64,000 bases of DNA from Myxococcota bacterium (GTDB taxonomy: Bacteria > Myxococcota_A > SURF-8): assembly GCA_965140415.1 (NCBI GenBank), contig OZ223209.1:4384001-4448000 (forward strand), given 5' to 3'. The position numbers and the translations under genes were made by a program. Shown one piece after another: positions 20,393 to 36,898 of the stretch (within the stretch, counting starts at the first letter, position 1; every line of letters begins with the position of its first letter). The notes beneath the pieces are model-generated. The model worked only from the letters and a program-made list of their open reading frames with translations. It made no database searches and had not been told where the DNA came from.

Positions 20393-23300
20393 TCAGGATT
20401 CCGCCACATCGGGGGTATTGACAGTTGCTTCCACTTCCGCCGATTCTTTTTTGCCAAGCAGCAGGCGAGCCAGGCGGCTGTGCTCCAGATCGTCGATCAG
20501 CGTGTAGACAACCGGAATCACGACCAGGGTCAACACGGTCGACGCGATCAGACCGCCGATCACCGCCACCGCCATGGGAGCGCGCATTTCCGAACCCAGT
20601 CCGTTACTTAACGCGACCGGCAACATACCGAAAACCATGGCGCCGGTGGTCATCAAAATCGGACGTAAACGAGTGGGTCCGGCCTTCAATAAGGCCTCTC
20701 TCCGGCTGAATCCATCGCGCCTGCGCAACGTATTGGTGTAGTCGATCAGCAGAATCGCATTTTTCGTCACCAATCCCATGAGCATGATAATTCCGATCAT
20801 GGAAATAATACCTAGCGCCTGCTTGGCCAGCAGCAATCCGGCGAGTGCACCGATCAACGACAACGGCAGCGACAGCATGATGGTAAACGGTTGCAGGAAA
20901 CTTTCGAACTGGCTGGCCAGCACCATATACACGATGATGATCGCTAAAAACAGCGCCACCGACATATGCTCGAAGTTTTCCTTCATGAACTTGGCTTCGC
21001 CTTCCCATTCACGCATCAGATGCTTGGGAACCACTTTTTCCGCCACGGCATTGATTTTCTGTACGGCATCGCCCAATGGCAAAGTCGTATCCAGGTTTGC
21101 CAGCACCGTGATTTCACGCTGGCGCGCACTGCGGTCGATCTGTGTCGGACCGGAGCCGACGTAGATATCGGCGGTATTGGCCAGTGACACGAGCTGGCCA
21201 TTGGAAGAGCGGATCTTCAACATGCCCAACTGTTCTTCCCGTTCACGATCGGTTTCCGCCAATTGCACCCGGATTTCGTAGTCCTCGCCAGAGTCTTTGT
21301 ATTTGGAGGCTTCGACTCCGGCCACAAACGCACGCAAGGTCTGGCCGACCTGGGCGGTCATCAAACCGAGATTCGCAGCCCGTTCGCGGTCGATATTGAC
21401 TTTAAGTTCCGGCTTGCTCGCTTCGAAGGTCGTATCCAGATCGACGACGCCGGGAATGAGCTTGATTTCATCCGCCAGTTCGCGTGTCACGCGGTCCAGT
21501 TCTTCCAGATCCCCACCACGAATGCTAAGCTGAATCGGCGCACTTCTAAACCCACCGGAAGAAGCAAAGGCATCGACATCTTCAACGGTGATGGTGGCTT
21601 CCTCGGAACTGGTCAATTCAGCGCGAAGAAGTTCGATAAACTTGCCCTGCGAAATATCGCGCTCACCCTTACCGCACAGCTTCACGTAGATCTGCGCAAC
21701 GTTCTTCTTTTTCTGAGCATCGGAACCGACTGTTGTGACCGTACTTACCACCACATCACGGTGAGCGCGAACTTTTTCCGCCAATTCGGAAGCCATCCGT
21801 TCGGTATGTTCGATGGTGGAACCCGTGGGCAATGTCAATACGACATTGATTTCACCCATATCCGCCCTCGTTTTCATTTCCGTACTGATGAACGTTCCCA
21901 TGTACAGAGAAAGGATAAAAATGGAGATGGCGGCAATTACCGTAGTCTTGCGATAGTTCAGCGCCAAACTGATGACCGAGCGATAACCGGAGTCGATCCA
22001 GTTAAGGAATCGTTCGATGGCATCGTATACCTTATTCTGGCCCCCCTTCTTCAAGAAGCGGGAACTGAGCATGGGCGTTAGCGTGAATGAGACGAACAGT
22101 GACAGCAACACGGCGACCGTAACCGTCAATCCGAACTGATACATAAATCGTCCGATGATACCACCCATAAAGGCCACCGGCACGAACACCGCGACAATGG
22201 ATAAGGTAGTTGCAAGAACCGCCAGCCCGATTTCGTCGGTCGCAAAAGCAGCCGCTTCACGCGCTGACATGCCCTCTTCCATGTGCCGGTAGATATTCTC
22301 CAGCACAACGATGGCGTCATCGATCAAAATACCGATGGAGATGGAAAGCGCCAGCATCGTCAAGGTGTTGAAGGTGAAATCCATCACGTAGATAAAGGTG
22401 AATGTTCCGATAACCGAGGTCGGAATGGCAAGCGCGCTGATAATCGTGCTGCGTCCGTTTCGCAGGAAGAAGAAGATGATCACCACGGCCAGAAACGCGC
22501 CGAAAATCATATCGAACTGCACGTGCTCGATGGACGTCTGAATAAAGGGCGTACTGTCCGCTGCGATGATTACCCGCCAGCCATCCGGGAAAGCGGGTTG
22601 CAATTCGGCCAGGCGCTCTTTCAGTTTTTCCGCGACAGCAACGGTATTCGTACCCGACTGCTTGAGCACTTTCAAAGTAACGGCGCGCGTTCCATCCAGT
22701 TTGGCGGCGGATTCACGCTCTTCCAGACCATCTTCCACCGTGGCGATATCCGCGATCCGAATACGCCTTCCCTGCTGCTCAACAACAGTCAGGTTGCGGA
22801 TTTCGTCCAGATTCTGAAACTCGCCATCTATTTTCAGTACGAATTCGGTGTCACCGGCAGTAACCCGTCCGCCAGGAATACTCAGATTGCTGGCAGCCAA
22901 TACCTGCACGATATCCGTAACCGCCAGGTTCCTCGCTTCCAGTTTACGGGGATCGACCCAGACTTTGATTTCGCGTTCCTGTCCACCGATGATGTCGATA
23001 CTACCGACACCTTGAATTTGCTGGATCTGCTCTTTGATTCGCTTACGGGCGAATTCCGTAACTTCGCTGATCGTTCCGGGTCCACTGACCGCAAGGGTCA
23101 TTACCGGGATGGCGTCCATGTCGAATTTTTCGACTTTGGGAGATTCGATTTCCGCAGGCAGATCCGGCAGAATACGTGAAATCTTATCCCGAACATCCTG
23201 AATGGCCTGTTCGGCATTGACTTCCATTTCGAACATGATGATTACCTGGGAAACGTTCTCCGCGCTGATGGAGCGCAGCGAACGAATACCGTTGATGGTG

Positions 23301-23515
23301 CTCACCGCTTCTTCGAGTTTTTCGCTGATCTCGGTTTCCACAGTCTCCGGGTCGGCGCCGGGATAGATCGTTAATATCGTGGCAACCGGGAATTCAATAT
23401 CCGGGTACAAATCCACGCCGATACGCGGATAACTCACCGCACCAAACACCACGATAGCCAGAATAACCATCGTGATGAAAACGGGGCGTTTGATCGATAC
23501 ATCAGAAAGGACCAT
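20393..23515 (-). CDS. RND efflux transporter permease (AcrB/AcrD/AcrF family)
   Basis: 1040 aa; SIKRPVF, GILIDDAIVVLENI, GLVTKNAILLIDY and RLRPILMT motifs. Confidence 0.97.
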   Translation of the reverse strand: MVLSDVSIKRPVFITMVILAIVVFGAVSYPRIGVDLYPDIEFPVATILTIYPGADPETVETEISEKLEEAVSTINGIRSLRSISAENVSQVIIMFEMEVNAEQAIQDVRDKISRILPDLPAEIESPKVEKFDMDAIPVMTLAVSGPGTISEVTEFARKRIKEQIQQIQGVGSIDIIGGQEREIKVWVDPRKLEARNLAVTDIVQVLAASNLSIPGGRVTAGDTEFVLKIDGEFQNLDEIRNLTVVEQQGRRIRIADIATVEDGLEERESAAKLDGTRAVTLKVLKQSGTNTVAVAEKLKERLAELQPAFPDGWRVIIAADSTPFIQTSIEHVQFDMIFGAFLAVVIIFFFLRNGRSTIISALAIPTSVIGTFTFIYVMDFTFNTLTMLALSISIGILIDDAIVVLENIYRHMEEGMSAREAAAFATDEIGLAVLATTLSIVAVFVPVAFMGGIIGRFMYQFGLTVTVAVLLSLFVSFTLTPMLSSRFLKKGGQNKVYDAIERFLNWIDSGYRSVISLALNYRKTTVIAAISIFILSLYMGTFISTEMKTRADMGEINVVLTLPTGSTIEHTERMASELAEKVRAHRDVVVSTVTTVGSDAQKKKNVAQIYVKLCGKGERDISQGKFIELLRAELTSSEEATITVEDVDAFASSGGFRSAPIQLSIRGGDLEELDRVTRELADEIKLIPGVVDLDTTFEASKPELKVNIDRERAANLGLMTAQVGQTLRAFVAGVEASKYKDSGEDYEIRVQLAETDREREEQLGMLKIRSSNGQLVSLANTADIYVGSGPTQIDRSARQREITVLANLDTTLPLGDAVQKINAVAEKVVPKHLMREWEGEAKFMKENFEHMSVALFLAIIIVYMVLASQFESFLQPFTIMLSLPLSLIGALAGLLLAKQALGIISMIGIIMLMGLVTKNAILLIDYTNTLRRRDGFSRREALLKAGPTRLRPILMTTGAMVFGMLPVALSNGLGSEMRAPMAVAVIGGLIASTVLTLVVIPVVYTLIDDLEHSRLARLLLGKKESAEVEATVNTPDVAES

Positions 23516-23526
23516 CTGTGCCCCCC

Positions 23527-24654
23527 TTAGATTTGCTGCTTAGGCTGGATGTCTTGACCATCCTTCAAATCGTCGACGCCGCTGACAATCAACTGATCGC
23601 CGCTGGACAATCCCTTGTTCACCAGCACGCGCTCTCCCTGGCTTTCCCCCAGAGTCACAAATACCACCTGAGCCTGTTCGCCTTTGGCGAGGTACACAAA
23701 GCTCTTGTCGTTGATGTCGCGCTTGACGGCGCGCACCGGCACGAGAATCGCCTGATCCACGCGATTGCGTTCCAGACGAATTCGGCAGAATGCACCAGCC
23801 TTGATGTCTCCAGTAGGATTGTCGATGCGCAGCCGCACTTCGAAATTCTGCGCGCCCTGCTGAATACGATTACTGGCGAAGATGATTTCGCCGGTGGTTT
23901 CCTTATCCGCGTAACCGATCGTGATCTTAGCCTTGTCGCCTTTTTTCACGTGGGCGGCAGCGTCTTCCGGCAGAAACGCCTGCACTTCCAAAGAGGAGGC
24001 ATCCACGATCTTGATCAAGGGCGTCAACGGCATGGAGGGCGCGTATTCGCCGATTTCTTTCAGGATCATGTCGATCACCCCATCATAGGGGGCTTTCAAT
24101 ACGGAGTCGGACAGCGCCTTCTGCGCCTGTTCCAAACCGCTTTCCGCCATCTGCAACTGAGCCACGGCACCATCGTACTGCGCTTTGACACGATCGTAAT
24201 TCGACTGCGAGGTCGCACTGGATTCAAGCAGTTGACTCATGCGGTCCAGTTCCAGCTTCATTAAATCGGCCTGCGTCCGGGCGGCCTCGCGGGCGGCTGT
24301 GGCTTGCTTGACGCCCAACGAATACCCTCGCTGATCGAAGCGCACAAGCACTTGCCCCTTCTTCACGACATCACCTTCTTTGACCCGGATTTCTTTAATT
24401 GTACCAGGCACTTCGCTGCTCAAAAAACTTTCCCGGAGAGGAAGAGCCGTACCGGTCACTTCGATTTCCGAGGTAAACGGCTCCGTTTTCAGTTCGATTA
24501 CACTGACCAGCTTACCTTTTTGATCCAATACCGCCGCCTGGGCCGGAGATTCGACTTTCGCCGGCTGGCAGCTCAACAACACAAAGGACAGCAGCATCAT
24601 TGCCAGTAATGCACTGTACCTCGTTTCCACTTGTGTTTGCCTTGGATGACTCAT
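23527..24654 (-). CDS. RND membrane-fusion (periplasmic adaptor) lipoprotein
   Basis: Lipobox LLSC; biotinyl-lipoyl-like SEVPG..VKEGDVVKKGQVL; LKAPYDG. Confidence 0.93.
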   Translation of the reverse strand: MSHPRQTQVETRYSALLAMMLLSFVLLSCQPAKVESPAQAAVLDQKGKLVSVIELKTEPFTSEIEVTGTALPLRESFLSSEVPGTIKEIRVKEGDVVKKGQVLVRFDQRGYSLGVKQATAAREAARTQADLMKLELDRMSQLLESSATSQSNYDRVKAQYDGAVAQLQMAESGLEQAQKALSDSVLKAPYDGVIDMILKEIGEYAPSMPLTPLIKIVDASSLEVQAFLPEDAAAHVKKGDKAKITIGYADKETTGEIIFASNRIQQGAQNFEVRLRIDNPTGDIKAGAFCRIRLERNRVDQAILVPVRAVKRDINDKSFVYLAKGEQAQVVFVTLGESQGERVLVNKGLSSGDQLIVSGVDDLKDGQDIQPKQQI

Positions 24655-24691: not shown

Positions 24692-26113
24692 TCAATTTAA
24701 CAGATCGTTGCCCATGCTGAGCATGAGAGCGGTTTCAGCAATCTTGACGTTCATTTCCGCAACAATCAGGTCGTTTTCCGCTTTGATCGCCTGGGTCTGG
24801 GTACCCAGCAAATCGGTGGTCGTCGCTTCCTGCACTTCGTAGCGCACTTCCTCGATTCGCAGGCTTTCCTTGGCTTGTTTCAACTGCGCGCTGGCAACTT
24901 CCACTTCTTGCAGAGCTTCTTTGAGATCCAGGCGCTTCTGTTCCACCTGCAAGCGTACACCGTCGGTAGCCGCTTGCAGACCGTAGGTGGCGATGTCGTG
25001 CTGGGCGTAGGCGCTTTTCGCTTTGTAGAAATCGGCACCCCACTCCCAGATGTCCCAACTCAACACCAACCCGCCGAAATAGGCGTGTTTTTGCGACATG
25101 TCTCCCAAGCCGCCTGCATATTCATACTGGAAGACGGCATTCAGTTCCGGCAACATGGCCGCGATAGCCGCATGTTTGCCCGCTTTGGCCGCTTCTTTCT
25201 GATGTTGGATGGCTTTCAGCATGGGATGGGTTTGCACCGCCGTACTTTTCTGAGCCTGCAACGAATCGTTCAACAACTGCGTTCCGACCTGTTCTTCATA
25301 TACCGGAATCAGTGGAGAATCGAAGCTGCGGCCCATGTACATGTTCAGCGCAGCCTTAGCCAGTTGAATGCCCTTTTCCACCTGGAAAATATTCTTCTGG
25401 ATTTCGGCTTTCTGGACCTGAACTTTCAACAAAGCGTTACGCTCGACCAACTCGGCTTCCATGTAAGCTTCGACCTGCTTTTCGTAGGCTTCCACCTGCT
25501 TGTACGCACTTTTCACGGTTTCGAGCATGCGGGTAGCCGAAATCAAGCTGTAATAGGCTTTTGACACGGTGCCTTCGATATCCTGGCGTTTGGTGTCCCG
25601 ATTGTAGCGGGCGGCGTCCGTTAACTCGTCGTTGGCCCAATATCCGGAGTAAATCTGGTACAGTTGCGTAAGCGGCTGGGCGACGGTCACCTTGGCGCCA
25701 TAAGTAAGCTGCTCGCGCAGCACCATGCTGGTATCCGCCGTCAACAAGGGCTGCAACTGCGCCTGAGTATCTGCCGACAGAAACGGTCCCATTTCTTCGA
25801 ACACCGCGCCCAGTGGTCCCATGAAGTCTCCAAGCATGTCGCTTGTAAACTCATCACCCCAGTACAGGAGATTCGCTTCCGCGCGCACCATCGGCAAGAA
25901 ACGTCCGCGAATGCTGTTCCGCTCGCCAAGCTGTTTCTCGACTTCGGCGTTTGCTGCCTTCAACTGGCTGTAATTACTAACGACTTCATTCAGGCATTGC
26001 TCCAGGGTCATTCGTTCGGCCCATGCCTGATTCGCGGGAAAAACAACCGTTAGCAGCAATACAACAATCAGCCACATCGGAATTTTGATCCACACTTTCC
26101 GCTTCATGTTCAA
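24692..26113 (-). CDS. TolC-family outer-membrane efflux protein
   Basis: Signal peptide, MTLEQCL, OEP repeats (FLP..; LPELN..LSWDIWEWG; RYEVQEATTTDLL). Confidence 0.92.
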   Translation of the reverse strand: MNMKRKVWIKIPMWLIVVLLLTVVFPANQAWAERMTLEQCLNEVVSNYSQLKAANAEVEKQLGERNSIRGRFLPMVRAEANLLYWGDEFTSDMLGDFMGPLGAVFEEMGPFLSADTQAQLQPLLTADTSMVLREQLTYGAKVTVAQPLTQLYQIYSGYWANDELTDAARYNRDTKRQDIEGTVSKAYYSLISATRMLETVKSAYKQVEAYEKQVEAYMEAELVERNALLKVQVQKAEIQKNIFQVEKGIQLAKAALNMYMGRSFDSPLIPVYEEQVGTQLLNDSLQAQKSTAVQTHPMLKAIQHQKEAAKAGKHAAIAAMLPELNAVFQYEYAGGLGDMSQKHAYFGGLVLSWDIWEWGADFYKAKSAYAQHDIATYGLQAATDGVRLQVEQKRLDLKEALQEVEVASAQLKQAKESLRIEEVRYEVQEATTTDLLGTQTQAIKAENDLIVAEMNVKIAETALMLSMGNDLLN

Positions 26114-26697
26114 TTCCTCTTTGTTAATCCTTCAAAGATTAGATCCAGATACTCTTTTACTTTTTGTCTTCCCTGCTCGAATGTCATGTTTCCCATGAAA
26201 ATCTGGTTCAACGCTTCATCCATGGAAATATTCAACAATTCCGCCGCTACCGTAGGTCTCCGGCAGGCGATTTCATTACGCTGTACACCTTCTAGAATCA
26301 CTTCAGTAAAGACGTCCACCGCCTGTTTATGATGAAACTTCAGGCCTATCTCGATTTCACTTTTCATTTCCAGCCAGATCTCGGGAGAAATCGCTTTGCC
26401 ATCCAGGATACGGATCGTGCTATCCAGAATGCTGTCGAACATCTTTTCGAACGTGTCACGCACCGTCTCGCCAAGCTGCCGCGCCTTGTCCATTCGAATG
26501 AAATGGCTTTCGGCGATCCGATTGATACAAGCTAAAAACAGCTCCCGCTTGCCGGGAAAATATTTGTAAATAGCTGATTTTACTAAACCTAAGTCACCTG
26601 CAATATCCTCTAACCGGCACCTGCGAAATCCATTGTGGAAAAAGTACCGTTCCGCAGCATCCAATATCTGTTCTCGTCTCATGTTTTCCGTGCTCAT
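26110..26697 (-). CDS. TetR/AcrR family transcriptional regulator
   Basis: RREQILDAAERYF..IAGDLGLVKSAIYKYFPGKRELF HTH; first gene of the efflux operon. Confidence 0.93.
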   Translation of the reverse strand: MSTENMRREQILDAAERYFFHNGFRRCRLEDIAGDLGLVKSAIYKYFPGKRELFLACINRIAESHFIRMDKARQLGETVRDTFEKMFDSILDSTIRILDGKAISPEIWLEMKSEIEIGLKFHHKQAVDVFTEVILEGVQRNEIACRRPTVAAELLNISMDEALNQIFMGNMTFEQGRQKVKEYLDLIFEGLTKRN

Positions 26698-26715
26698 CTT
26701 ACCACCTGGTGACCA

Positions 26716-26742
26716 AGTGAACAATTCGTTCATTTGTTCACT
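26716..26742. promoter_or_regulatory. Probable TetR operator, next to a TTGACA -35 (minus strand, 26756-26761)
   Basis: AGTGAACAA-N9-TTGTTCACT dyad just upstream of tetR. Confidence 0.6.
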
Positions 26743-26893
26743 ATTGCAATAAAAATGTCAAGCGTTTTTTTGTTGAGTAATATTTTCATGAGAGTAAGCC
26801 GGAAGAATAAGCGCACACACCAGCTTATGCCCCAATCGACAAGAGATTGCAGGTCGGGTCAGATGACCCTTTGGATGGTTCAAGGCTCCCGTC

Positions 26894-28215: not shown

Positions 28216-28288
28216 GATATAATCCTGATCCATCGCAAGAGATACTGTCCCGACCATGAAGACAAACGCAAGGAGCAGGACGGGAGCC

Positions 28289-29594
28289 CACAGCTGTCCC
28301 GCTAACTTCCAGGTTCAGCGCTACAACTACTTATTATTACAGATTGAATTTGTGATTATCAGGTGTCCGCGATAGTTTTTCTGCATTTCGAATAGTCAAG
28401 AAATGCAGGAGATCAAAATGACACAGACTGTCTTTTCGCAAGTGCTCGACTATTTGCCGGATCGCCATTTCCGCCGTTGTGTCAATCGCTATCAGGGGAA
28501 CAAGCGCATTCGTACCTTTTCCTGTATGGATCAATTCATTTGCATGGCATTTGCCCAGCTGGCCTACCGCGAAAGCCTGCGCGATATTGAAGCGACCTTG
28601 CGGGCTATTCAGCTGAAACTTTATCACATGGGTCTGCGTGGAAAAGTCTCTCGCAACACACTGGCCAGAGCGAATGAAAAACGCGACTGGCGCATTTACG
28701 CAGATCTCGCTCAGCCCCTGATACGGCGCGCCCGCGCGCTGTATGCGGACGAGAAGCTCGCCGTCGACCTAGACGCCACCACCTACGCGCTCGACACGAC
28801 AGCGATTGATTTGAGTTTGTCGCTTTTTCCATGGGCCAAATTCACGCGATACAATGGATCATTGCGTCTTCACACGCAAATGGACCTTCGCGGACGGATT
28901 CCCGCCTTTATTTCCATTACGGACGGCAAGAGCCATGACAAGCGTTTACTGGATATTCTGCCTTTGGAAGCGGGCGCATTTTATATCATGGATCGCGGTT
29001 ATGTCGATTACGGACGCATGCATCGCATCCATCGGGCGGGAGCCTTCTTCATTCTTAGAGCCAGCAAGAACACCAGCACAAAGCGAATCTATTCACACCC
29101 CATCGACAAGAGCTTGGGATTGCGCGCCGATCAGACCGTGAGCTTCGTGGACCGTGCTTCCATTCGACGCTATCCGGATCATGTGCGGCGAATCAACTAC
29201 ATCGATCCAGAATCGAACACCCGATTTGTCTGGCTGACCAACAACTTTGATCTTTCTTCGGAAACGATTCCGGACTTGTACCGGCTGCGGTGGAGTATCG
29301 AAGTGTTTTTCAAATGGATCAAACAGAATCTGCGAATCAAGGCGTTTTACGGTCGCAGCGCCAATGCGGTAAAGACACAAGTGTGGATTTCGATTACGGT
29401 TTATCTGTTGGTTGCGATTCTGAAAAAGGATCTGAATCTCGAGCACAGTTTGATGACGATTCTACAGATTTTAAGCGTCACGCTTTTCGAGGAAAGCCCC
29501 ATTTTACAGGTGCTAAAGGCAAACGCCTCCCTGCCTACCAATATCCCTTTTGGTAAGCAGTTGGAATTATTCAATAGTTAACGGGACAGCTGTG
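28289..29594 (+). mobile_element. IS4-family insertion sequence, copy B (diverged relative of copy A)
   Basis: TIRs CACAGCTGTCCCGCTAACT / AGTTAACGGGACAGCTGTG (one mismatch). Confidence 0.92.
28418..29581 (+). CDS. IS4-family transposase (DUF4372 + DDE_Tnp_1)
   Basis: Same motifs as copy A; clearly homologous but with many substitutions. Confidence 0.95.
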   Translation: MTQTVFSQVLDYLPDRHFRRCVNRYQGNKRIRTFSCMDQFICMAFAQLAYRESLRDIEATLRAIQLKLYHMGLRGKVSRNTLARANEKRDWRIYADLAQPLIRRARALYADEKLAVDLDATTYALDTTAIDLSLSLFPWAKFTRYNGSLRLHTQMDLRGRIPAFISITDGKSHDKRLLDILPLEAGAFYIMDRGYVDYGRMHRIHRAGAFFILRASKNTSTKRIYSHPIDKSLGLRADQTVSFVDRASIRRYPDHVRRINYIDPESNTRFVWLTNNFDLSSETIPDLYRLRWSIEVFFKWIKQNLRIKAFYGRSANAVKTQVWISITVYLLVAILKKDLNLEHSLMTILQILSVTLFEESPILQVLKANASLPTNIPFGKQLELFNS

Positions 29595-29666
29595 GGCTCC
29601 CGTCTTGAACCTTCGGCTTTCGGTCGGGGCTCCTGTCCCGACCACAAAGACAAAAGTCAAACGACG

Positions 29667-29721
29667 CTTGCCCATGTGACCCTCGAACACGGGCAAACCT
29701 GCGGTTTAGCCCGCGCCACCC
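29667..29721 (-). repeat. GGTGGC-type REP-like element
   Basis: Near-identical to the reverse complement of 41318-41371; related to 38247-38336. Confidence 0.7.
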
Positions 29722-29831
29722 TGACTGTTGAATACACAAGCAAAAACGGCAGGCTTACGCTCCGCCGCTACAGAAGTCAAAAAGTTGTATCGTCTAAAAT
29801 AATGAGGAACCGCGATAGACCGGAGTTGGGC

Positions 29832-30638
29832 TTAGCCAACCGACAGCATAGAAGAAATCCTATCGGGAGTACAGGTTTCCAAGATGCAACGATCCACGGC
29901 ATAGCAGTATTTCGAGAATCCCCGTTGCTGCAATTCGAAATGCTGGATCATGCGCAGCACCCAGCGCGGAACATCCGTTTCCGTTTTGATTTCCAGCACG
30001 ACGGGAGAATCGTCTTCGTTGCACGAAGCCGTTTCGGCATCGTCGAAGTAGACAAAGGTGTCATCCGTTAGGAAGTTAGTATCTCCATGCGTTGCGCGGG
30101 AGGAAATCCCCCGGTCGAAGGTGATTCGACAGTAGTTCTCGTAATCGCTGATATAGGGTTCACGACTGTAACGAACGTGTATAACCGGAGCGGCGCCATA
30201 TCGTAGAACCGCGTTTTCAAACGACTCACGCAAATTGCTCTTGATGACCGCACCGGGGCGCTCGCCGTTTTCCACCATCCGGCTCGCGGCTTCATCGAAA
30301 ATGCCTTCCCAGCGATCGTATTCGATTCTGCGTCGCGTCTTCCAGGTAATCTTTTGAAGCTTGTGCTTCACCTCGAGCCACAGGTATTTACCCGGCTCGT
30401 TGCCGTAAAAACGCACCCGCAACTTGAAGCGATTGAACTGCTTGAATTTCGTATCGTAGTAGAAGCGCAGATCCGGTGTGTCGAAATAGAAATTGTTCAC
30501 GTTGTAGCGATTATCCGGCCCGGCATAGGAATCCGGCGAGCACATGCACTGGATATAATCCCGAATCGCCCGAGCTTTAGACTCGCTGATGAGGCACTTC
30601 GTTTCGTAACGACTGATGACAACTCGTTCATCCTTCAT
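29832..30638 (-). CDS. VTC-domain (polyphosphate polymerase, CYTH-like) protein
   Basis: RYETK, YFDTPDL, KLRVRFY, LEVK, YSRE, RITFD, VLEIK and FSKY motifs. Confidence 0.9.
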   Translation of the reverse strand: MKDERVVISRYETKCLISESKARAIRDYIQCMCSPDSYAGPDNRYNVNNFYFDTPDLRFYYDTKFKQFNRFKLRVRFYGNEPGKYLWLEVKHKLQKITWKTRRRIEYDRWEGIFDEAASRMVENGERPGAVIKSNLRESFENAVLRYGAAPVIHVRYSREPYISDYENYCRITFDRGISSRATHGDTNFLTDDTFVYFDDAETASCNEDDSPVVLEIKTETDVPRWVLRMIQHFELQQRGFSKYCYAVDRCILETCTPDRISSMLSVG

Positions 30639-30658
30639 GATCCACCTCGATGTAAATC

Positions 30659-31933
30659 CTACTTGGTCAATGAACGCTCGCTTTGCACCCCTACTATAGT
30701 AGACACATTGATGGCTTCAATTGTTACATCGTAAACCGCTTCTTTGAGCATGATTTTCATTTCAATATCCGAAATCTCCAGATCTAGGATCTCATCCTGT
30801 GGCAGTTGCTGCGACTTCGCCTGCTGGATCAGTTGCTCCATTTCACCAAGCGACACTTGTGCCTCTTGCTTCAAAGCCTGATATTCCCCAAATGCCTGCC
30901 GGTATTTCACCATTGCCTTTGAGAGATCCCGGTCGACTTTCGTCTGCTCGGCTTCATGGAAAAGCGAGAGGTTGTTTCGTTCGATTTTCGTGGAGCGCAA
31001 CTTTCCGAGATTCCAGTTGAACAGGGGCACCTCGATTCCCAATACCAGTTCACCCCAATCCGTCTTTTGACTTTCGTAGTGATAGTTCGCCTCGACGAAG
31101 GAAAACCAGGGAATGAGCTTGAAGCGTTCCGCCCGGTAACGACTTTGCGCCAGAGCCATCCTTCGCTTGGAAAGCTCCGCTTCCGGGCGATTGGAAAACG
31201 CCACGGTTTGCAGTGTCTCATCATCCAGCACAAGTTCCACCGGCTCGGATTCAATTACGGTCACGTTCTCTGAAACGCCAACAAGCCTGGCGAAATGCTT
31301 TTTGGTTTCGCTATAGCGACCAGCAATTCCCATGGCCTCGCGCTTGGCCTTGACGAAACGCCGTCTGGCCTTCATGCGATTCCCAAGCGAACGACTACCT
31401 AATTCGCAAAACTTGGAGACGATTTCATTTCGACGTTCTTCCAACTCCTGCTTGCGCTGTGTCAACTCCGTAAGAGATTGCAATAGAACCAGTTCCGCAT
31501 AGGTTTCGCGAATGTCGGAGATCACGTCCATCTTCAAGTCGAAGGCATCGACCCGTTCTTCCCAAAGATCGACCTGACTTTCAGCCTGCTTCTCACTCAA
31601 CTCGCCGATTCTCGGCAAACGCCAGCGAAGGCCGATTTGGAATTCCTGATTGTCCACGCTCGAATCGAAATACTTCGTGGAAAGATCGCGAAAGCGAAGT
31701 TCGGGGTTATCGACTTCGAAGCGGGAAAAGTCGGCGACTTTCTTTCTTGCCAGGACCTGTGCGTTTGCCTTGTTGAGTTCGGCACTTTTTTCAAGTCCTC
31801 GTTCAATCGCAGCGGCTTCGGTAATGACGTTTGTACCTTGTTCGGCAGAGGCCGCCAGACTCGGAAGCAGCAGAAACGCAACGAATCCGACCAGCACTGC
31901 TTTTTGTAGTGTTGCGTATGTCATGACGATCAC
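30659..31933 (-). CDS. TolC-family outer-membrane protein
   Basis: Signal peptide, NPEL, NRPE, LGIEVPLFNWN OEP motifs, long helices. Confidence 0.8.
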   Translation of the reverse strand: MIVMTYATLQKAVLVGFVAFLLLPSLAASAEQGTNVITEAAAIERGLEKSAELNKANAQVLARKKVADFSRFEVDNPELRFRDLSTKYFDSSVDNQEFQIGLRWRLPRIGELSEKQAESQVDLWEERVDAFDLKMDVISDIRETYAELVLLQSLTELTQRKQELEERRNEIVSKFCELGSRSLGNRMKARRRFVKAKREAMGIAGRYSETKKHFARLVGVSENVTVIESEPVELVLDDETLQTVAFSNRPEAELSKRRMALAQSRYRAERFKLIPWFSFVEANYHYESQKTDWGELVLGIEVPLFNWNLGKLRSTKIERNNLSLFHEAEQTKVDRDLSKAMVKYRQAFGEYQALKQEAQVSLGEMEQLIQQAKSQQLPQDEILDLEISDIEMKIMLKEAVYDVTIEAINVSTIVGVQSERSLTK

Positions 31934-33147
31934 AACTTGGTGTTGGAGGAATCGGGTGCGGCCTCCGGTTTTGCGGCATCACTTGCAGCAGGAGGCAGCA
32001 TTTTCGGTTCGTTTTCCACAGCCTTCGACGGAAGCGGCTCCGAAGGGCTCTTGTTGTAGCTGTCCAACAAAGCCTGGGTGGAAGCCGGAATTCCGCTTAA
32101 CAATTTCACCTGGGCGGCCTCACCCGGCACAAGGTTGTCGCCGTCGTCTATTTTCACTCGGAATTTTCTGGCCCAGTAGATCAGCTTTCGAAATGCCAGC
32201 CGCTCGGGAATCGACGAATAGCTCGGGTCCACAAACACGACGGTTCCGCCTGCGGCATACTGCCCCGTACGATGCGGATAGATACCGACACGTTCACCAA
32301 GGCGGGGAATGGTATCGGATGTTTCCGGCACATAAGCATCGATGAATTCGGCATCCGGTTCTTCAACCGTTAGAATCGTGGCAAACGCCTCGACGGAATC
32401 GCCCGGCAGGTAGTTGATTTTCACCACGCGCCCCTCGCAGGGGGTGATGACCTTGATTCGGTTCATGCGGGTATCCAGGATTTTCAACCGCAAGCGAATT
32501 TCATGGATGCGGTCCATACGGTCACTCAACATCGACAGCACCACCCGCTCGCCTTCGCTCTCGCCCCAACTCGACCGGGACGTTTTCTTGGAAGAAGACG
32601 TTTTGTTTCTTTCCGTGCTCTGCGACTGAATGAAACGGGTCAGCGTATCGCGCCGGATGATCAAATTCGAAAGTTCCTCGGGACGCCCCAAGCCCTCTTT
32701 CTGCGCAGCCGTCAAGCGTTCGATTTCTCCATTGACTGCGGCCAGTTCCGCTTTCTTCATTTCAAGTTCCGAGCGCCACTGTCCCAAACGCGAGGCATCC
32801 GTTTCGCTTTGCAGACGGAGTTTTTCGTATTCCAACGAAAAGCGACTGCGGTCGGCTTCCATCATGTCTTCCAGGCGCACCAGTTCCTGCTCCAACCACT
32901 CTTTTTCCGCTTCCAGATCGGTGCTGTCCAACGTTACGAGCAATTGATTGGCCTGCACTTGATCGCCCAAGGTGACGAAAATGCGGTCGATGCGACCGGA
33001 TTCCTGGGCGCTCAATTTATGGGTGCGCGTTTCCACTACACCGATGAAATCGATGTCGATTGCGAAAAAGTAGTACATCACGGCAGATAAAATCGCGATC
33101 AATCCCCAGGCTACCCAAAATACATTCTGTCTTTTTAAAGCTTTCAC
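31930..33147 (-). CDS. HlyD-family membrane-fusion protein
   Basis: N-terminal TM, SAQESGRIDRIFVTLGDQV, long coiled coil, ITPCEGRV..PGDSV, LVPGE. Confidence 0.85.
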   Translation of the reverse strand: MKALKRQNVFWVAWGLIAILSAVMYYFFAIDIDFIGVVETRTHKLSAQESGRIDRIFVTLGDQVQANQLLVTLDSTDLEAEKEWLEQELVRLEDMMEADRSRFSLEYEKLRLQSETDASRLGQWRSELEMKKAELAAVNGEIERLTAAQKEGLGRPEELSNLIIRRDTLTRFIQSQSTERNKTSSSKKTSRSSWGESEGERVVLSMLSDRMDRIHEIRLRLKILDTRMNRIKVITPCEGRVVKINYLPGDSVEAFATILTVEEPDAEFIDAYVPETSDTIPRLGERVGIYPHRTGQYAAGGTVVFVDPSYSSIPERLAFRKLIYWARKFRVKIDDGDNLVPGEAAQVKLLSGIPASTQALLDSYNKSPSEPLPSKAVENEPKMLPPAASDAAKPEAAPDSSNTKL

Positions 33148-33154
33148 GATTCAC

Positions 33155-33835
33155 CTACACTTCCACGGTTGTCTGTTGATTCAGGTACGACAACCCTCGG
33201 ATACCTTCGATTTTTTCAAGTTCAGCCAACAACCGGTCGCAGTCGCGTTCATTATTGAAGCGCACCTGGTAGGCATAATCCATCATTTCGCCCTGCGCCA
33301 CGCTCCGCTTGGTAACCAATGCAAAATGACTTGGTATGCTTCCGATGATTTCGGCTACCTTTGTGGAACTGTCATTTCCGGAAGGCGCTTGAAAACGAAC
33401 CAGGCCGTCGTGATTGCGTCGCTGCCCGAAAGAAGTGGCCTGCATGATGACCGCCGCAAAGGCAAACATGGCGGCTCCGACAACGGCGGTGTGATAACTC
33501 TGCACACCGCAAGCAACACCGACACCCAGAGACGCGAATAAAAACACCAGATCGCGTGGGTCGCGCAAGTTGGTTCGGAAACGGATAATCGCCAGCGATC
33601 CGACAATACCGATGCCGCGTGCGACGTTATCACCGATGGCGATCATGATCAGACTGGCGATCATGCTGCCTAAAACCATTGCCTGTAGTAAATTGCTCGA
33701 CCAGGACAAGCCTTTGAAGGTTTTTTCGTATACCTTGGCCAACAAGCTGGACAACAAAAAGGCCAGTAATAATGACAGCATCGTGTGATGCCATTCCAAT
33801 TTTACCGAACCGAAGCTGAGCAATAAACTTTCCAT
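33155..33835 (-). CDS. DUF4956 membrane protein (MgtC-like TM bundle + ACT-like C-terminus)
   Basis: IGDNVARGIGIVGSLAIIRFRT..DPRDLVFLF..GVACG signature. Confidence 0.88.
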   Translation of the reverse strand: MESLLLSFGSVKLEWHHTMLSLLLAFLLSSLLAKVYEKTFKGLSWSSNLLQAMVLGSMIASLIMIAIGDNVARGIGIVGSLAIIRFRTNLRDPRDLVFLFASLGVGVACGVQSYHTAVVGAAMFAFAAVIMQATSFGQRRNHDGLVRFQAPSGNDSSTKVAEIIGSIPSHFALVTKRSVAQGEMMDYAYQVRFNNERDCDRLLAELEKIEGIRGLSYLNQQTTVEV

Positions 33836-33891
33836 CTTCTTCTCGCTTTTCTTCCATGCACAACTTCAGGCATAGCCGTGCAAGCTACCGA

Positions 33892-34413
33892 TTACATCCA
33901 ACGCTCCAGATGGGAACGCGCCTGCTTTATGTACAAGGGATTTCCAGTCGCCGCGAAGCCGTTGACCTCCTCAAACGGGAAGTTCTGGGCTGCAATCGAC
34001 CCCATTGCAAAAATATCGTCTATAACACCCTTAAAATCGGCATCAAAGACAGAATCATCACCTTTTAAAACCGCCACACGAAAATTGCCTATCCCCTGGC
34101 TTGAAGATTCTCCGCAATCGGAAACATCAGCTTCCCACTCTATCCACTTTTTCAAATCACCAAGGCGACCGACATCCGGTTTCATATAGGTATAATGGTT
34201 AGCATCCGTTTGAAGTGCAGTCCAGGACAAAATGACTTGAAGCGCTCCAATTAGATCCTGAATTTCTTGCACTTGCTTTTCACGGAAGGAAAAAGTGGGA
34301 TGATCCATATCTTCGGGAAAACACTCCCGAATCGTGCCGATGACGATCAGCGAAACGACCTTTTGGATAATTATTCGACGTATTGTGTGACTATTCAACA
34401 CGAAGGGTTCCAT
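33892..34413 (-). CDS. Hypothetical protein (first gene upstream of DUF4956)
   Basis: Longest ORF in the gap, same strand as the VTC operon; start uncertain (ATG 34413 chosen). Confidence 0.5.
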   Translation of the reverse strand: MEPFVLNSHTIRRIIIQKVVSLIVIGTIRECFPEDMDHPTFSFREKQVQEIQDLIGALQVILSWTALQTDANHYTYMKPDVGRLGDLKKWIEWEADVSDCGESSSQGIGNFRVAVLKGDDSVFDADFKGVIDDIFAMGSIAAQNFPFEEVNGFAATGNPLYIKQARSHLERWM

Positions 34414-34616
34414 AATCTTTCTCATCCAGCTCCAACACCCGTATTCACAGGCAATTCTTGCATCGACACTGCAACCACCGCCATCTTTGCAAAAATAAAT
34501 ATACTCACCTAATCTTAAGACTTTCTTAAGCATTGTTAGATATATCATATTTTGATAATGTTTTTTTAACGATTCAATAATAATTGTTGAATCCTCGGAC
34601 TAAGGAACGGCTCGCC

Positions 34617-35285
34617 ATGACAGATACGATTCTCCTTATCGAAGATGATGAGGAACTGGGCAGTCAAATCGTCGAACATCTTCGGAAAGCCGGATTCTGG
34701 ACGATCTGGAAGAAGGAAGGAGAACGGCTGTTAGAGAATGCTGCACCCGAATTCTCGCTGCTGATTCTAGACTTGATGCTGCCTGGAACCTGGGGGATCG
34801 ACATTCTCAAGCATCTGCGTAGCTACTCGGACGTTCCCGTTCTGGTATTGAGCGCGCGCAATCAAACGGCAGACAAAGTCCGGGCATTTAGACAAGGCGC
34901 GGATGATTACATGACGAAGCCTTTCTGGCCGGAAGAGTTGATCGAGCGCGTTCGGGCGAGATTACGTCGTCCGGTCATGCAAAAAGAAGGACCGGTGGAA
35001 ATCGATTCACTGACCATCGATGTCGCAAGACGCGAGATTACGAAAGAGGACAAGCAGATCGACTTGACCCGTGTCGAATTTGACCTGCTCGCGGCCTTGG
35101 TCCACAGACGCGGTGAAGCGGTGACCCGGCGTTGGCTGGTGGACAACATTCTCGATCCGGATAAGGACGGCACCGAGCGCACACTGGACGTTCACATTTC
35201 GCATCTCAGAAAGAAACTGACCGTCGATAACCTGATCGAGACCGTTTGGGGAATCGGCTACCGCCTGAAAACGGAAAAGAATTAA
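34617..35285 (+). CDS. OmpR/PhoB-family response regulator
   Basis: LLIEDD, LDLMLPG, GADDYMTKPF; winged helix DVHISHLRKKL..TVWGIGY. Confidence 0.95.
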   Translation: MTDTILLIEDDEELGSQIVEHLRKAGFWTIWKKEGERLLENAAPEFSLLILDLMLPGTWGIDILKHLRSYSDVPVLVLSARNQTADKVRAFRQGADDYMTKPFWPEELIERVRARLRRPVMQKEGPVEIDSLTIDVARREITKEDKQIDLTRVEFDLLAALVHRRGEAVTRRWLVDNILDPDKDGTERTLDVHISHLRKKLTVDNLIETVWGIGYRLKTEKN

Positions 35286-36898
35286 TGACCCTGCGCCTTC
35301 GCCTAGCTTTGACCACCCTGTTGGTGGGACTTCCCGTACTGATCGGGTTCTGGGTCGTGCAGTATTACTTTGAGGAACGTTTAGACAAAGAATCCATTTC
35401 CCAGTTCGTACTGGCGTACATGCAAAGCGGGGGCCGTGAAGAGTGCGAAGCGAATCCCGCTTTGTGGAACGGTGGAAAGCTTGGCCGTATGCCTTCGATG
35501 TCCGATAATCACCCCCCCGAGATGCCGATGAATCAAGACGACCCTGCCGACCCATGGAACCGGGACCCCGGCGGCGGACCTCCGGGCGATATGCCTCCGA
35601 ATCGAGACGACAGAAATCCGCCTCCACACAAAATGGATGGGATTTACGCCTATAACGCAGGGTATCAGTCCAGCAATAAAGACGCGCCTTCATTGGCCAC
35701 AGAATTGACCGAACAGATCGAAGCAGGAGACAGCGTCGCCCAGCGCCTGATCGAAGATAAGCGGATGCAGTGCCGCCCGCCAAACTGCAGGCAGATTTTT
35801 TTTAGACCACATCCACCGAACGGACCAAAGAAGCCCATGCTGCGCGAAGTGCTGATCCGCATGCCGTGGAACGAGGGTCCCTGCGCACGCATCCTGGTTC
35901 GACGTCCCGCGCCGCCGTTTATCCATCGCGCAGGCCGCATCATTCCCACCACTCAAATCTGGCTGCTTCCGTTTTTCGCCGTGCTGGCGGCGCTGCTGTT
36001 TTCCATCGGTCCGGTCGTAAAACGGATTCGTTTACTGACGCTCGAAGTTCGCGAATTCGCCAAGGGACAATACAAACCGACGGTAACAGTAAAAGGAAAA
36101 GACGAAATCGGCGAACTGGCTCGCGCTTTCAAAGTCGCTGGGGAAGAAATCCGTACGCAGATCGCCAAACAGGAACTTCGGGAACGGACACTGCGCAACT
36201 TCCTTGAAAACACCACCCATGACGTCATGATCCCGCTGACGGTATTGCAAGGCCACTTAAGCGACATGATGGAGCGCACACACGGCGCTGAAGAAATGGA
36301 TGCAGACCTGGTCAGTTCCGCCATGAACGAGGCGCAATACATCTCCTCCCTGATCGAAAATCTGTTGATTGCGGCAAAGATCGAAGAGGGTGAACCGAGC
36401 CTGCACTGGACACAAGTCAACATGAATTCGTTGATCGAGCGAGTGATCGGACGCCATCAGCCGATCGCCCGGCCCAAGCTGGTTACGCTTGAATATGCGG
36501 TTCCCGAAATACCGTTGATTGTAGACGGAGACATTACCTTCATCGAACAGGCTGTGAATAATATTGTTTACAATGCAATCAATCACAATCTGCCGCAGGG
36601 CCATGTGGCCGTGGTACTGGAACCGGAAGGAGCAGATGACTTCATATTGCGTGTTATCGACGACGGTCCCGGCATTGCCGAAGAAGAACTTTCCAGACTT
36701 GTAGACCGCTGGTTTAGAGGTAACGCCGCGCGAAGTCGCGGAACGAAAGGCCAGGGCCTGGGTCTGAGTATCGCCTATCAACTTGCCAAACTGCACCATT
36801 GGAGTTTCGAGCTGAGTCGTTCCTCTTTCGGAGGATTGCAGGTCGAACTTGCAGGAAAACGCATAAGTAACGAGGATCACTCCAGCAATTCCGAATAG
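35285..36898 (+). CDS. HAMP-domain sensor histidine kinase
   Basis: Two TMs, HAMP (DEIGELARAF), H-box THDVMIPL, N-box NIVYNA, DDGPG, GLGLSI; start overlaps the regulator stop. Confidence 0.93.
   Translation: MTLRLRLALTTLLVGLPVLIGFWVVQYYFEERLDKESISQFVLAYMQSGGREECEANPALWNGGKLGRMPSMSDNHPPEMPMNQDDPADPWNRDPGGGPPGDMPPNRDDRNPPPHKMDGIYAYNAGYQSSNKDAPSLATELTEQIEAGDSVAQRLIEDKRMQCRPPNCRQIFFRPHPPNGPKKPMLREVLIRMPWNEGPCARILVRRPAPPFIHRAGRIIPTTQIWLLPFFAVLAALLFSIGPVVKRIRLLTLEVREFAKGQYKPTVTVKGKDEIGELARAFKVAGEEIRTQIAKQELRERTLRNFLENTTHDVMIPLTVLQGHLSDMMERTHGAEEMDADLVSSAMNEAQYISSLIENLLIAAKIEEGEPSLHWTQVNMNSLIERVIGRHQPIARPKLVTLEYAVPEIPLIVDGDITFIEQAVNNIVYNAINHNLPQGHVAVVLEPEGADDFILRVIDDGPGIAEEELSRLVDRWFRGNAARSRGTKGQGLGLSIAYQLAKLHHWSFELSRSSFGGLQVELAGKRISNEDHSSNSE

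Follow-up and report, generated by a model that had tools for sequence, protein, structure and literature searches.

What could drive export through a HlyD-type adaptor and a TolC-type channel that are encoded side by side with no pump, and what would such a duct carry? The question is raised by a cluster of four genes in a Myxococcota bacterium (assembly GCA_965140415.1, contig OZ223209.1, positions 4,384,001 to 4,448,000). This stretch of 64,000 nucleotides (nt), referred to here as the window, is the whole of the genome that was viewed. In the cluster, the two envelope proteins are accompanied by a membrane protein of the DUF4956 family and by a protein with a VTC domain, the tunnel domain of the yeast complex that makes polyphosphate (polyP). 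A preliminary description of the locus took it for a synthesis-driven polyP exporter. In the reading favoured here, which we give about an even chance of being right, the four genes encode an envelope-spanning machine that makes polyP and exports it across both membranes as it is synthesized.

The cluster lies on the minus strand and consists of four co-oriented, near-abutting open reading frames (ORFs). The first (33155..33835) encodes the DUF4956 inner-membrane protein of 226 amino acids (aa), assigned to Pfam PF16316. It is followed by a periplasmic adaptor, or membrane fusion protein (MFP), of the HlyD/EmrA-like kind (31930..33147; 405 aa, GTG start; HlyD_D23). The third gene codes for an outer-membrane factor (OMF) of the TolC family (30659..31933; 424 aa, GTG start; OEP), and an in-frame ATG lies 9 nt inside its GTG start. 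The last gene (29832..30638) encodes a VTC-domain triphosphate-tunnel protein of 268 aa (Pfam PF09359). A gap of 7 nt separates the DUF4956 and adaptor genes, the adaptor and OMF genes overlap by 4 nt (GTGA), and a gap of 20 nt precedes the VTC gene. This spacing suggests a single transcript with translational coupling. All four proteins pass the curated cut-offs in a Pfam scan, which revealed no additional Pfam family in any of them. The layout and spacings given in the preliminary description agree exactly with the ORF listing and with Pfam. It is very probable that the four genes form one functional unit.

How widely the arrangement is kept can be judged from relatives of the VTC protein. 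A search yielded 338 relatives at E <= 1e-3 from 672 candidates, the closest non-self ones being 58-60% identical. Those with a name are called "polyphosphate polymerase domain-containing protein" and come from Myxococcota, KSB1 and other uncultured lineages. For the gene neighbourhoods, an alignment of 52 VTC sequences was scanned against one genome per GTDB species; 120 stretches matched, and 94 of these encoded a relative. The sample consists of the best 80 of the 94 confirmed loci with up to 10 kb on each side, the 14 more distant ones being excluded. The ORFs of these loci were translated and searched with the four proteins of the window and with hidden Markov models (HMMs) iterated on the matches.

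A complete set of four near-full-length genes is present in 57 of the 80 loci. The order is DUF4956-MFP-OMF-VTC in 54 of them, MFP-OMF-VTC-DUF4956 in two and VTC-DUF4956-MFP-OMF in one, and the median spacings in the complete loci, as called, are 5, -4 and -4 nt. Twenty of the 23 incomplete loci are cut by a contig end, and in each of the other three (L042, L057 and L066) a single member is damaged or has diverged strongly. In the contig-cut loci, the expected neighbour is present in every case that retains 400 nt or more upstream. The upstream ORF of L074 matches the OMF model with an E of 2.7e-6. In L042 the DUF4956 gene is in two pieces, and L057 has no intact VTC ORF. In two Halobacteriovorax loci, the OMF position (L066:8799-9980 and L068:739-1920) is held by a 393-aa signal-peptide protein that is rich in predicted helices. 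These proteins match the OMF model weakly (E 8e-4 in L066 and 3e-3 in L068) and belong to no Pfam or NCBIfam family; they could be either very divergent OMFs or replacements. None of the 80 loci contradicts the four-gene pattern, and the linkage, whose conservation the preliminary description had singled out for checking, holds in this sample.

Going by the labels on metagenome-assembled genomes, the set spans more than 10 phylum-level lineages. These labels include Myxococcota, Latescibacterota, KSB1, Neomarinimicrobiota, Calditrichaeota, Ignavibacteriae and Gemmatimonadaceae, and further Cytophagia/Bacteroidia, Fibrobacterota/Chitinivibrionales, Delongbacteria, Halobacteriovorax, Planctomycetota and Nitrospiria. 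The mean pairwise identity is 0.57 for DUF4956, 0.44 for VTC, 0.33 for the adaptor and 0.28 for the OMF. Across the four families, pairwise identities rise and fall together (r 0.90-0.94), which indicates that the four genes are inherited as a unit. The four-gene arrangement is far above chance, and the sampled VTC subfamily is always linked to the duct that the adaptor and OMF represent.

The VTC and DUF4956 pair has also been described in Gram-positive bacteria. There, pel loci contain cotH, a polyP polymerase gene and DUF4956, with no adaptor or OMF, according to the available parts of two reports (PMC7112168; bioRxiv 10.1101/2024.04.20.589940). As the Gram-positive module does without them, the two envelope parts look like an addition that is associated with the outer membrane. 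Pairs without a duct in monoderms and a duct-bearing subfamily in diderms are what would be expected if the product of VTC and DUF4956 comes to lie beyond the inner membrane and, in diderms, has an outer membrane to cross as well.

The nature of that product depends on the VTC protein. It matches PF09359 at 2.4e-37 over residues 10-249, with 129.2 bits against a cut-off of 23. The protein is a tunnel domain only, with no signal peptide, SPX domain or membrane segment. When 40 orthologues are combined into a profile, its match to the yeast Vtc4 catalytic domain (3g3q, E 1.3e-9) is better than that to Vtc2 (3g3o, 3.8e-5). Counted along the printed profile alignment, residues K14, R74, R76, K91 and Y157 of the window's protein align with K200, R264, R266, K281 and Y359 of Vtc4, and residues R159, E216, S242 and K243 align with R361, E426, S457 and K458. 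All nine ligand positions for triphosphate and Mn2+ are present in the window's protein and are invariant in the 40 aligned relatives. In Vtc4, the set from K200 to K458 holds the triphosphate and Mn2+, each residue being needed for polyP accumulation, and K458 is the sole position that differs in the inactive Vtc2/3, which have Ile or Leu instead (bioRxiv 10.1101/2023.01.27.525886, in its available part). The intact basic tunnel that had been noted earlier is confirmed by these nine ligands, the lysine equivalent to K458 among them. We propose that the VTC protein is a polyphosphate polymerase, as its ligand set would suggest.

The triphosphate-tunnel fold (CYTH/TTM superfamily) is common to enzymes with other activities, and a different explanation can be built on this. 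The four genes would still make up one system, with a VTC protein that is no polymerase; it would be a tunnel hydrolase or cyclase, or would sense a phosphorylated ligand. The role of DUF4956 would be that of an MgtC-like regulatory or transport subunit, and the duct would export another cargo, such as a nucleotide or another small phosphorylated compound, which could serve secreted kinases of the CotH type. In favour of this is the weak likeness of DUF4956 to MgtC, both in the sequence and in the ACT-like domain at the C-terminus, and ACT domains usually bind small ligands. Set against this, the protein sits in the VTC family proper at 129 bits, its profile is closer to Vtc4 than to Vtc2, and it keeps the Vtc4-distinguishing lysine together with all the other ligands. 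A TolC-sized duct would also be unusual for a nucleotide. We consider this explanation, taken as a whole, unlikely.

If polyP is made at the inner membrane, the DUF4956 protein is the candidate for its passage. The protein matches PF16316 at 2.4e-12 (47.4 bits against a cut-off of 30.6) and is the most conserved of the four, with a mean column identity of 69% over 48 sequences from many phyla. An invariant stretch reads ...GDN.ARG.G..G.LAIIRFRTNLRDPRD..., and the arginine-rich loop R85-F-R-T-N-L-R-D-P-R-D95 is invariant. In the AlphaFold2 model, which has a predicted local distance difference test (pLDDT) value of 75.4, helices at 15-39, 47-67, 70-87, 93-110 and 114-133 are followed by an alpha/beta domain at 144-219. 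The fold of this domain is matched by an ACT domain (3ibw, E 2.5e-3) and by the C-terminal domain of MgtC (2lqj, E 1.1e-2, TM-score on the target 0.59), with no match at E <= 1e-3. No structural relative of the membrane part was found in the PDB fold search, and a search with the DUF4956 sequence against solved structures gave nothing at E <= 10. At the sequence level, MgtC is matched below the family cut-offs in both Pfam (PF02308, E 6.3e-4, 20.5 bits against 31.4) and NCBIfam (NF011912, E 3.4e-4, 20 bits against 255). A protein-language-model atlas gives scores of 0.76-0.79 for DUF4956 against MgtC, which serve as leads only. The DUF4956 protein of S. intermedius has been given the same "4 TM + ACT" build (bioRxiv 10.1101/2024.04.20.589940, in the portion available).

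The DUF4956 model has nothing but loops of 2-3 residues on one side and carries the arginine-rich loop together with the ACT-like domain on the opposite one. The latter side is taken to be the cytoplasmic one, in agreement with the positive-inside rule. The model would thus have its N-terminus in the periplasm, with the arginine-rich loop and the ACT-like domain in the cytoplasm beside the enzyme. DUF4956 may in this way provide both the inner-membrane conduit and the docking site of the polymerase. In the yeast VTC channel, rings of basic residues surround the cytoplasmic mouth (bioRxiv 10.1101/2023.01.27.525886, available part). The arginine-rich loop recalls these rings, by analogy.

The two envelope proteins belong to well-known families and yet fit none of their curated subfamilies. 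The adaptor matches HlyD_D23 (9.3e-11, 41.8 bits against 30), HlyD_3 (24.2 bits against 22.2) and Biotin_lipoyl. A membrane anchor at the N-terminus, lipoyl and beta-barrel domains flanking a long helical insertion, and a low-complexity tail rich in P, A and S make up the protein, which has no membrane-proximal domain. Its best NCBIfam match is EmrA/EmrK (2.9e-16), where 59.4 bits fall far below the cut-off of 390.8. EmrA-type adaptors likewise have no membrane-proximal domain; they serve transporters without periplasmic domains. The TolC-binding tip motif of adaptors, R-x3-L-x6-S, is not evident among the conserved positions, the tip reading EI.RL..AE.AGLG..RDL..L. The OMF matches Pfam OEP in two stretches (7.7e-15, 55.6 bits against 22) and the NCBIfam TolC model at 2.1e-5 (23.7 bits against a cut-off of 225). 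As read from the translation, its N-terminus is signal-peptide-like, ending ...LAASA/EQ, and has no lipobox cysteine. Neither protein reaches a curated NCBIfam subfamily, whether EmrA/EmrK, RND_mfp, type_I_hlyD, MacA or DevB for the adaptor, or TolC or NodT for the OMF. From these family assignments, the adaptor and OMF are best described as a dedicated, divergent pair.

TolC-type proteins often serve several pumps. The well-studied tripartite adaptors and OMFs need an energized transporter (PMC8277102, in the part available). On these grounds, the partner of the pair might be a conventional transporter (ABC, MFS or RND) with its gene elsewhere. The linkage of the pair to DUF4956 and VTC would then reflect co-regulation, for example if polyP metabolism and efflux react jointly to phosphate stress. 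The restriction of the view to 64 kb leaves room for such a pump. Within that view, the operon contains no ABC, RND, MFS or PET transporter and its gaps are too small for one; beside the cluster, there is also no ABC, RND or MFS pump among the 47 scanned ORFs of the window. The preliminary description had called the operon pump-free, and the ORF gaps and Pfam scan agree. Its further prediction of a pump-free export set is borne out in the relatives: in 11 full-length loci of different lineages, the 86 flanking ORFs with a length of 130 aa or more include no ABC, RND or MFS efflux pump within 10 kb. Transport proteins around these 11 loci are limited to some sodium symporters and, in L001, a housekeeping SecDF at a distance of about 7 kb.

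The one pump in the window belongs to an operon of its own on the minus strand. This operon consists of genes for a TetR regulator (26110..26733), an OMF (24692..26113), an adaptor (23527..24654) and an AcrB-type RND pump (20393..23515; ACR_tran, 939 bits), the last lying about 6.3 kb downstream of the VTC cluster. Compared by BLASTP with their counterparts in the VTC cluster, its adaptor (E 0.024) and its OMF (E 0.005) give no significant match. The RND operon was considered as the source of the missing pump and was rejected, as it is complete and separated from the cluster by two insertion sequence (IS) elements. Being self-sufficient and made of unrelated parts, it is not the missing partner of the VTC cluster.

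The position of the adaptor and OMF genes also speaks against a pump elsewhere. They are inserted between DUF4956 and VTC in overlapping or near-abutting frames in 54 of the 57 complete loci, across many phyla, and they co-evolve with both neighbours to the degree given above. Together with the lack of a pump near the 11 loci, the unrelated parts of the window's only pump and the distance of the pair from every curated subfamily, this leaves a conventional transporter encoded at another site as very improbable.

The favoured machine would then work as follows. The soluble VTC protein, at the cytoplasmic face of the inner membrane, would take up a nucleoside triphosphate into its basic tunnel and, like yeast Vtc4, build polyP from it. 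The growing chain would pass to an oligomer of the five-helix DUF4956 protein, whose arginine-rich loop and ACT-like domain would form the chain entry and the docking or regulatory site. The membrane-anchored EmrA-like adaptor would bridge the periplasm to the TolC-type channel. The polymer would thereby bypass the periplasm and either exit the cell or reach its surface. The energy would come from the phosphoanhydride bonds spent in polymerization, and the inside-negative membrane potential acting on the polyanion would probably add to it. We infer polyP as the product, DUF4956 as the conduit, the physical contact of the parts, and the direction and destination of transport.

Several points weigh against this machine. 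The authors of the S. intermedius study guessed that the polyP stays in the cytoplasm (bioRxiv 10.1101/2024.04.20.589940, available part). A partner pump could lie elsewhere in the genome, of which 64 kb were viewed. The related loci were sampled through the VTC subfamily itself, and they are silent on the share of diderm VTC/DUF4956 pairs that have no duct. The tunnel fold also supports triphosphatases and cyclases, and no biochemical evidence for any bacterial VTC-domain protein was found in the searched literature, which was available in part and has most subscription journals outside it. The duct does not show the electrostatics of a polyanion channel; the median net charges are -4.5 for the OMF and -2 for the adaptor, and the OMF columns that are at least 80% conserved hold 3 K/R against 4 D/E. 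The nearest relatives of DUF4956 appear, on a weak match, to be MgtC proteins. MgtC is known as a regulator of other membrane proteins rather than as a channel, and we know of no MgtC protein with a shown channel function.

The predicted contact between VTC and DUF4956 is also weak. Complex prediction was carried out for one pair, with paired alignments from the same loci, three runs and three controls. The score was 0.43, with single runs at 0.00, 0.49 and 0.43, and the best control at 0.00. Of 157 solved complexes, 116 reach the mark used for this prediction, as do 2 of 215 mismatched pairs, and scores of 0.60 or below comprise only 18 of the 157 solved complexes and both of the mismatches that pass. 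In the runs, the contact agreement was at least 0% and the partner pLDDT at least 68. The prediction came out above its controls, with a low score and one run at 0.00, and it lends weak support to a VTC-DUF4956 contact. A further, weak negative is that no natural fusion of VTC with DUF4956, or of DUF4956 with the adaptor, occurs among 5015 DUF4956 and 746 VTC candidates. The sole apparent DUF4956-adaptor fusion, P0121 (512 aa, on a 2-kb metagenome contig), was set aside as probably a frameshift read-through or sequencing artefact, since its DUF4956 C-terminus leaves the family consensus before the adaptor starts.

The genes that accompany the cluster in related loci bear on what becomes of the product. 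The commonest extra neighbour is a secreted Lamin-tail-domain (LTD) protein, which in many cases has a CotH kinase domain joined to it. The LTD/CotH proteins form a BLAST cluster that spans 57 loci, and a CotH-specific HMM finds matches in 28 of the 80. Examples are L009:10714-12384, L006:4388-5977, L041:10119-12158 and L032:207-4817. Several of these proteins have type-IX secretion sorting, C-type lectin domains or carbohydrate-binding modules. No CotH/LTD gene is present among the 47 scanned ORFs of the window. The secreted CotH/LTD proteins that flank the relatives point to an extracellular use of the product.

An extracellular kinase needs a phosphoryl donor, and the same CotH and LTD/CotH counts also favour the export of a small phosphorylated cargo as set out above. 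There is also a more far-reaching version of polyP export. Here, exported polyP would be the phosphoryl and energy source for secreted CotH-type kinases and other LTD proteins, and the motor would be the polymerase seated on an MgtC-like channel. The machine would then represent a new class of trans-envelope apparatus, distributed over more than ten diderm phyla. We regard this version as a distinctly long shot. If it were true, there would be an extracellular phosphorylation economy that runs without external ATP. The recurrent link to secreted CotH kinases hints at an unexplored extracellular phosphorylation chemistry.

The adaptors of the related loci come in two main lengths. Among 69 adaptor ORFs, 40 encode about 640-720 aa and 20, including that of the window, encode 330-419 aa. 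In the long form, e.g., L001:6632-8686, L009:6656-8719 and L034:6547-8625, the C-terminal 320 or so residues are modelled as a beta-propeller with a pLDDT of 92. The PDB matches of this propeller are a calcium-activated nucleotidase/apyrase (1s18, E 2.4e-7, TM-score 0.51) and E. coli YjiK (3qqz), and its weak Pfam matches are DUF6929, DUF6910 and "phytase-like". The window's adaptor is of the short form and has no propeller, and neither the window nor the short-form loci contain a stand-alone copy of it. A periplasmic propeller related to phosphoanhydride hydrolases would suit a polyP system, the similarity being at the level of propellers in general. The preliminary description missed both the CotH/LTD neighbours and the propeller of the relatives, and its picture of the system was to this extent incomplete.

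These extra parts could also mean that polyP crosses the inner membrane without being released, and that the duct or the adaptor hands it over to the periplasm, to the outer membrane or to a polymer at the surface. Trimming or use would take place there, with the long-form propeller or CotH/LTD proteins as possible agents, and the outcome would be a surface or envelope layer of polyP or a modification. The propeller carried by 40 of the 69 adaptors fits this, as its closest PDB match is an enzyme type that hydrolyses phosphoanhydrides and its weak Pfam matches include the phytase-like one. Neighbours such as Cthe_2159 carbohydrate-binding proteins, metallophosphoesterases and type-IX-secreted LTD proteins speak for it as well. 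The Gram-positive versions, too, sit in loci for the exopolysaccharide pel (PMC7112168, available part). The window, however, has neither propeller nor CotH/LTD gene and still keeps its four core genes intact. A TolC-type channel normally opens outward, and the propeller match is a generic one (TM-score about 0.5, 15% identity). Delivery to the envelope is given a small chance on this balance, and export to the outside remains the preferred reading.

Other genes recur around the related loci. Proteins of the Cthe_2159 beta-helix carbohydrate-binding kind are encoded at L001:3335-5188, L002:4565-6583, L020:3842-5686 and L034:3963-5762. PPDK_N proteins (ATP-grasp-like phosphotransfer) are found at L003:4363-6522 and L042:3218-5314. 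Metallophosphoesterase/purple acid phosphatase genes and a type I phosphodiesterase fragment are represented by L071:10904-12484, L077:1829-2797 and L020:260-910. These recurrent neighbours may form a wider neighbourhood for extracellular phosphate or glycan modification.

Upstream of the operon, an intergenic region of 748 nt (33836..34583) extends to a divergently transcribed regulator gene and is the presumed promoter site. The number of promoter-like sites showed no excess (6 found against 4.3 +/- 2.3 in shuffles), and that of terminator-like sites was uninformative (9 against 6.3 +/- 2.6). An Rfam scan of 29000-35000 returned nothing at E <= 0.1. The search for operators upstream of the operon gave no direct repeats and two short palindromes only. 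A near-perfect palindrome, GATTCAATAAT-A-ATTGTTGAATC, at 34571-34593 overlaps the start of the response-regulator gene and is a possible operator.

Between the operon and the regulator gene lies an ORF of 218 aa on the minus strand (33892..34548). It belongs to no Pfam or NCBIfam family and has no relative in the 80 loci. Among 1.84 billion representative sequences, it matched only itself and one 27-residue segment (E 4.8e-5). A 213-aa version that starts from residue 6 is present in the protein library, apparently as the predicted protein of its own genome. The ORF was considered as a fifth gene of the operon and rejected, having no family and effectively no relatives. It may be an orphan or a non-gene.

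The divergent genes on the plus strand encode a response regulator of the OmpR/PhoB family (34584..35285; Pfam Response_reg and Trans_reg_C) and a HAMP histidine kinase (35246..36898; Pfam HAMP, HisKA and HATPase_c). An identity as PhoBR was tried for this two-component system and could not be assigned. It stays below every NCBIfam equivalog cut-off, and MtrA, BaeR and PhoB score alike. A regulator and kinase are found upstream on the opposite strand in at least seven loci of the closest clade (L004, L006, L007, L008, L010, L011 and L064). The operon may be under the control of this two-component system.

Downstream of the VTC gene there are two IS4-like elements with terminal inverted repeats and DUF4372 and DDE_Tnp_1 transposases. 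The copy directly downstream of the gene lies at about 28270-29613 and the other at about 26892-28217. They are arranged in tandem and are about 80-92% identical to each other. The pair occupies the position just after VTC where the relatives usually carry a CotH/LTD gene, and it is possible that a deletion of the CotH/LTD gene from the window is linked to these insertions.

Farther away on the minus strand, the window encodes a protein of 1057 aa with two CapC-like (capsule biosynthesis) stretches at 1079-4252. Its neighbours are a CHASE2 protein (4259-6301), a kumamolisin/subtilase-type peptidase (6302-8053) and an FGE-sulfatase-like protein (8078-8962). In some of the related loci the VTC cluster, too, has FGE-sulfatase-like genes nearby, one example being L003:6566-7582.

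Polyphosphate in bacteria is viewed as a cytoplasmic store made by PPK enzymes. If the proposed machine is real, it would provide a concrete gene set for how bacterial polyP reaches the outside, together with a first function for bacterial VTC-domain proteins and for DUF4956. The inner-membrane partners of HlyD/TolC would then extend beyond transporters and glycan synthases. It would also suggest that the coupling of polymerization and passage in the eukaryotic VTC complex has a bacterial counterpart with a different channel. No description of the four-gene system was found in the full-text literature searched, which was covered in part, with most subscription journals lying outside.

One close counterpart of the operon is the yeast VTC complex of Vtc4, Vtc3 and Vtc1 (PDB 8i6v, 7ytj; bioRxiv 10.1101/2023.01.27.525886, available part). 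It has the same PF09359 tunnel domain and the same nine ligands. The proposed logic is also shared, i.e., a polymerase docked on a membrane channel with synthesis coupled to translocation. In contrast to the operon, the yeast complex has SPX and fused membrane domains and a pentameric channel of three-helix Vtc1-type subunits, the place of which would be taken by DUF4956. It also contains a second, inactive tunnel subunit that has no counterpart in the operon. The yeast complex delivers its product to the vacuole lumen, whereas the proposed target of the operon is the exterior, across two membranes and with an adaptor and OMF added.

With tripartite efflux systems and those of type I secretion, the operon shares a membrane-anchored HlyD/EmrA-like adaptor and a TolC-family OMF with two OEP repeats, encoded side by side. 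Those systems have an energized inner-membrane transporter, whereas there is none in the operon or near the 11 related loci surveyed. The DUF4956 protein can be compared with the MgtC/SapB proteins. In DUF4956 as modelled and in the MgtC/SapB proteins alike, about five helices make up a hydrophobic N-terminal domain, and a cytoplasmic domain that resembles ACT comes after it. The similarity in sequence and in language-model features is weak, the sequence match falling below the family cut-offs, and the RFRTNLRDPRD loop and the fixed partnership with VTC are specific to DUF4956. The cotH-polyP-polymerase-DUF4956 module of the Gram-positive pel loci contains the same VTC and DUF4956 pair as the operon, and CotH is the commonest extra in the diderm loci as well. 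That module, as far as the available sources describe it, has no adaptor or OMF, whereas the window has both and no CotH gene.

A precedent in design exists among polysaccharide systems. In Sinorhizobium meliloti, the glucan synthase BgsA, the HlyD adaptor BgsB and TolC have been proposed as a tripartite exporter driven by the synthase, and the same report (PMC13438883, in its available part) cites a cellulose system of cyanobacteria with a like design. The two are alike in design only: where a classical pump would stand, a processive polymerase works with a HlyD adaptor and a TolC channel, polymer synthesis being regarded as coupled to export. In the Bgs type, an integral-membrane glycosyltransferase itself provides the channel and makes a glucan. 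The operon has no glycosyltransferase; it has a soluble tunnel enzyme, a separate small membrane protein and a presumed inorganic polyanion as product, and its TolC gene lies inside the operon. The synthesis-driven exporter of the preliminary description keeps its footing in the linkage, the lack of a nearby pump, the dedicated adaptor and OMF and the catalytic set, while the precedent makes the design less unusual than its label of "unconventional" implies. The proposed machine would combine three known kinds of system, namely tripartite ducts, synthase-coupled polymer export and the VTC-type coupling of polyP synthesis with translocation, and what would be new in it is the inner-membrane module.

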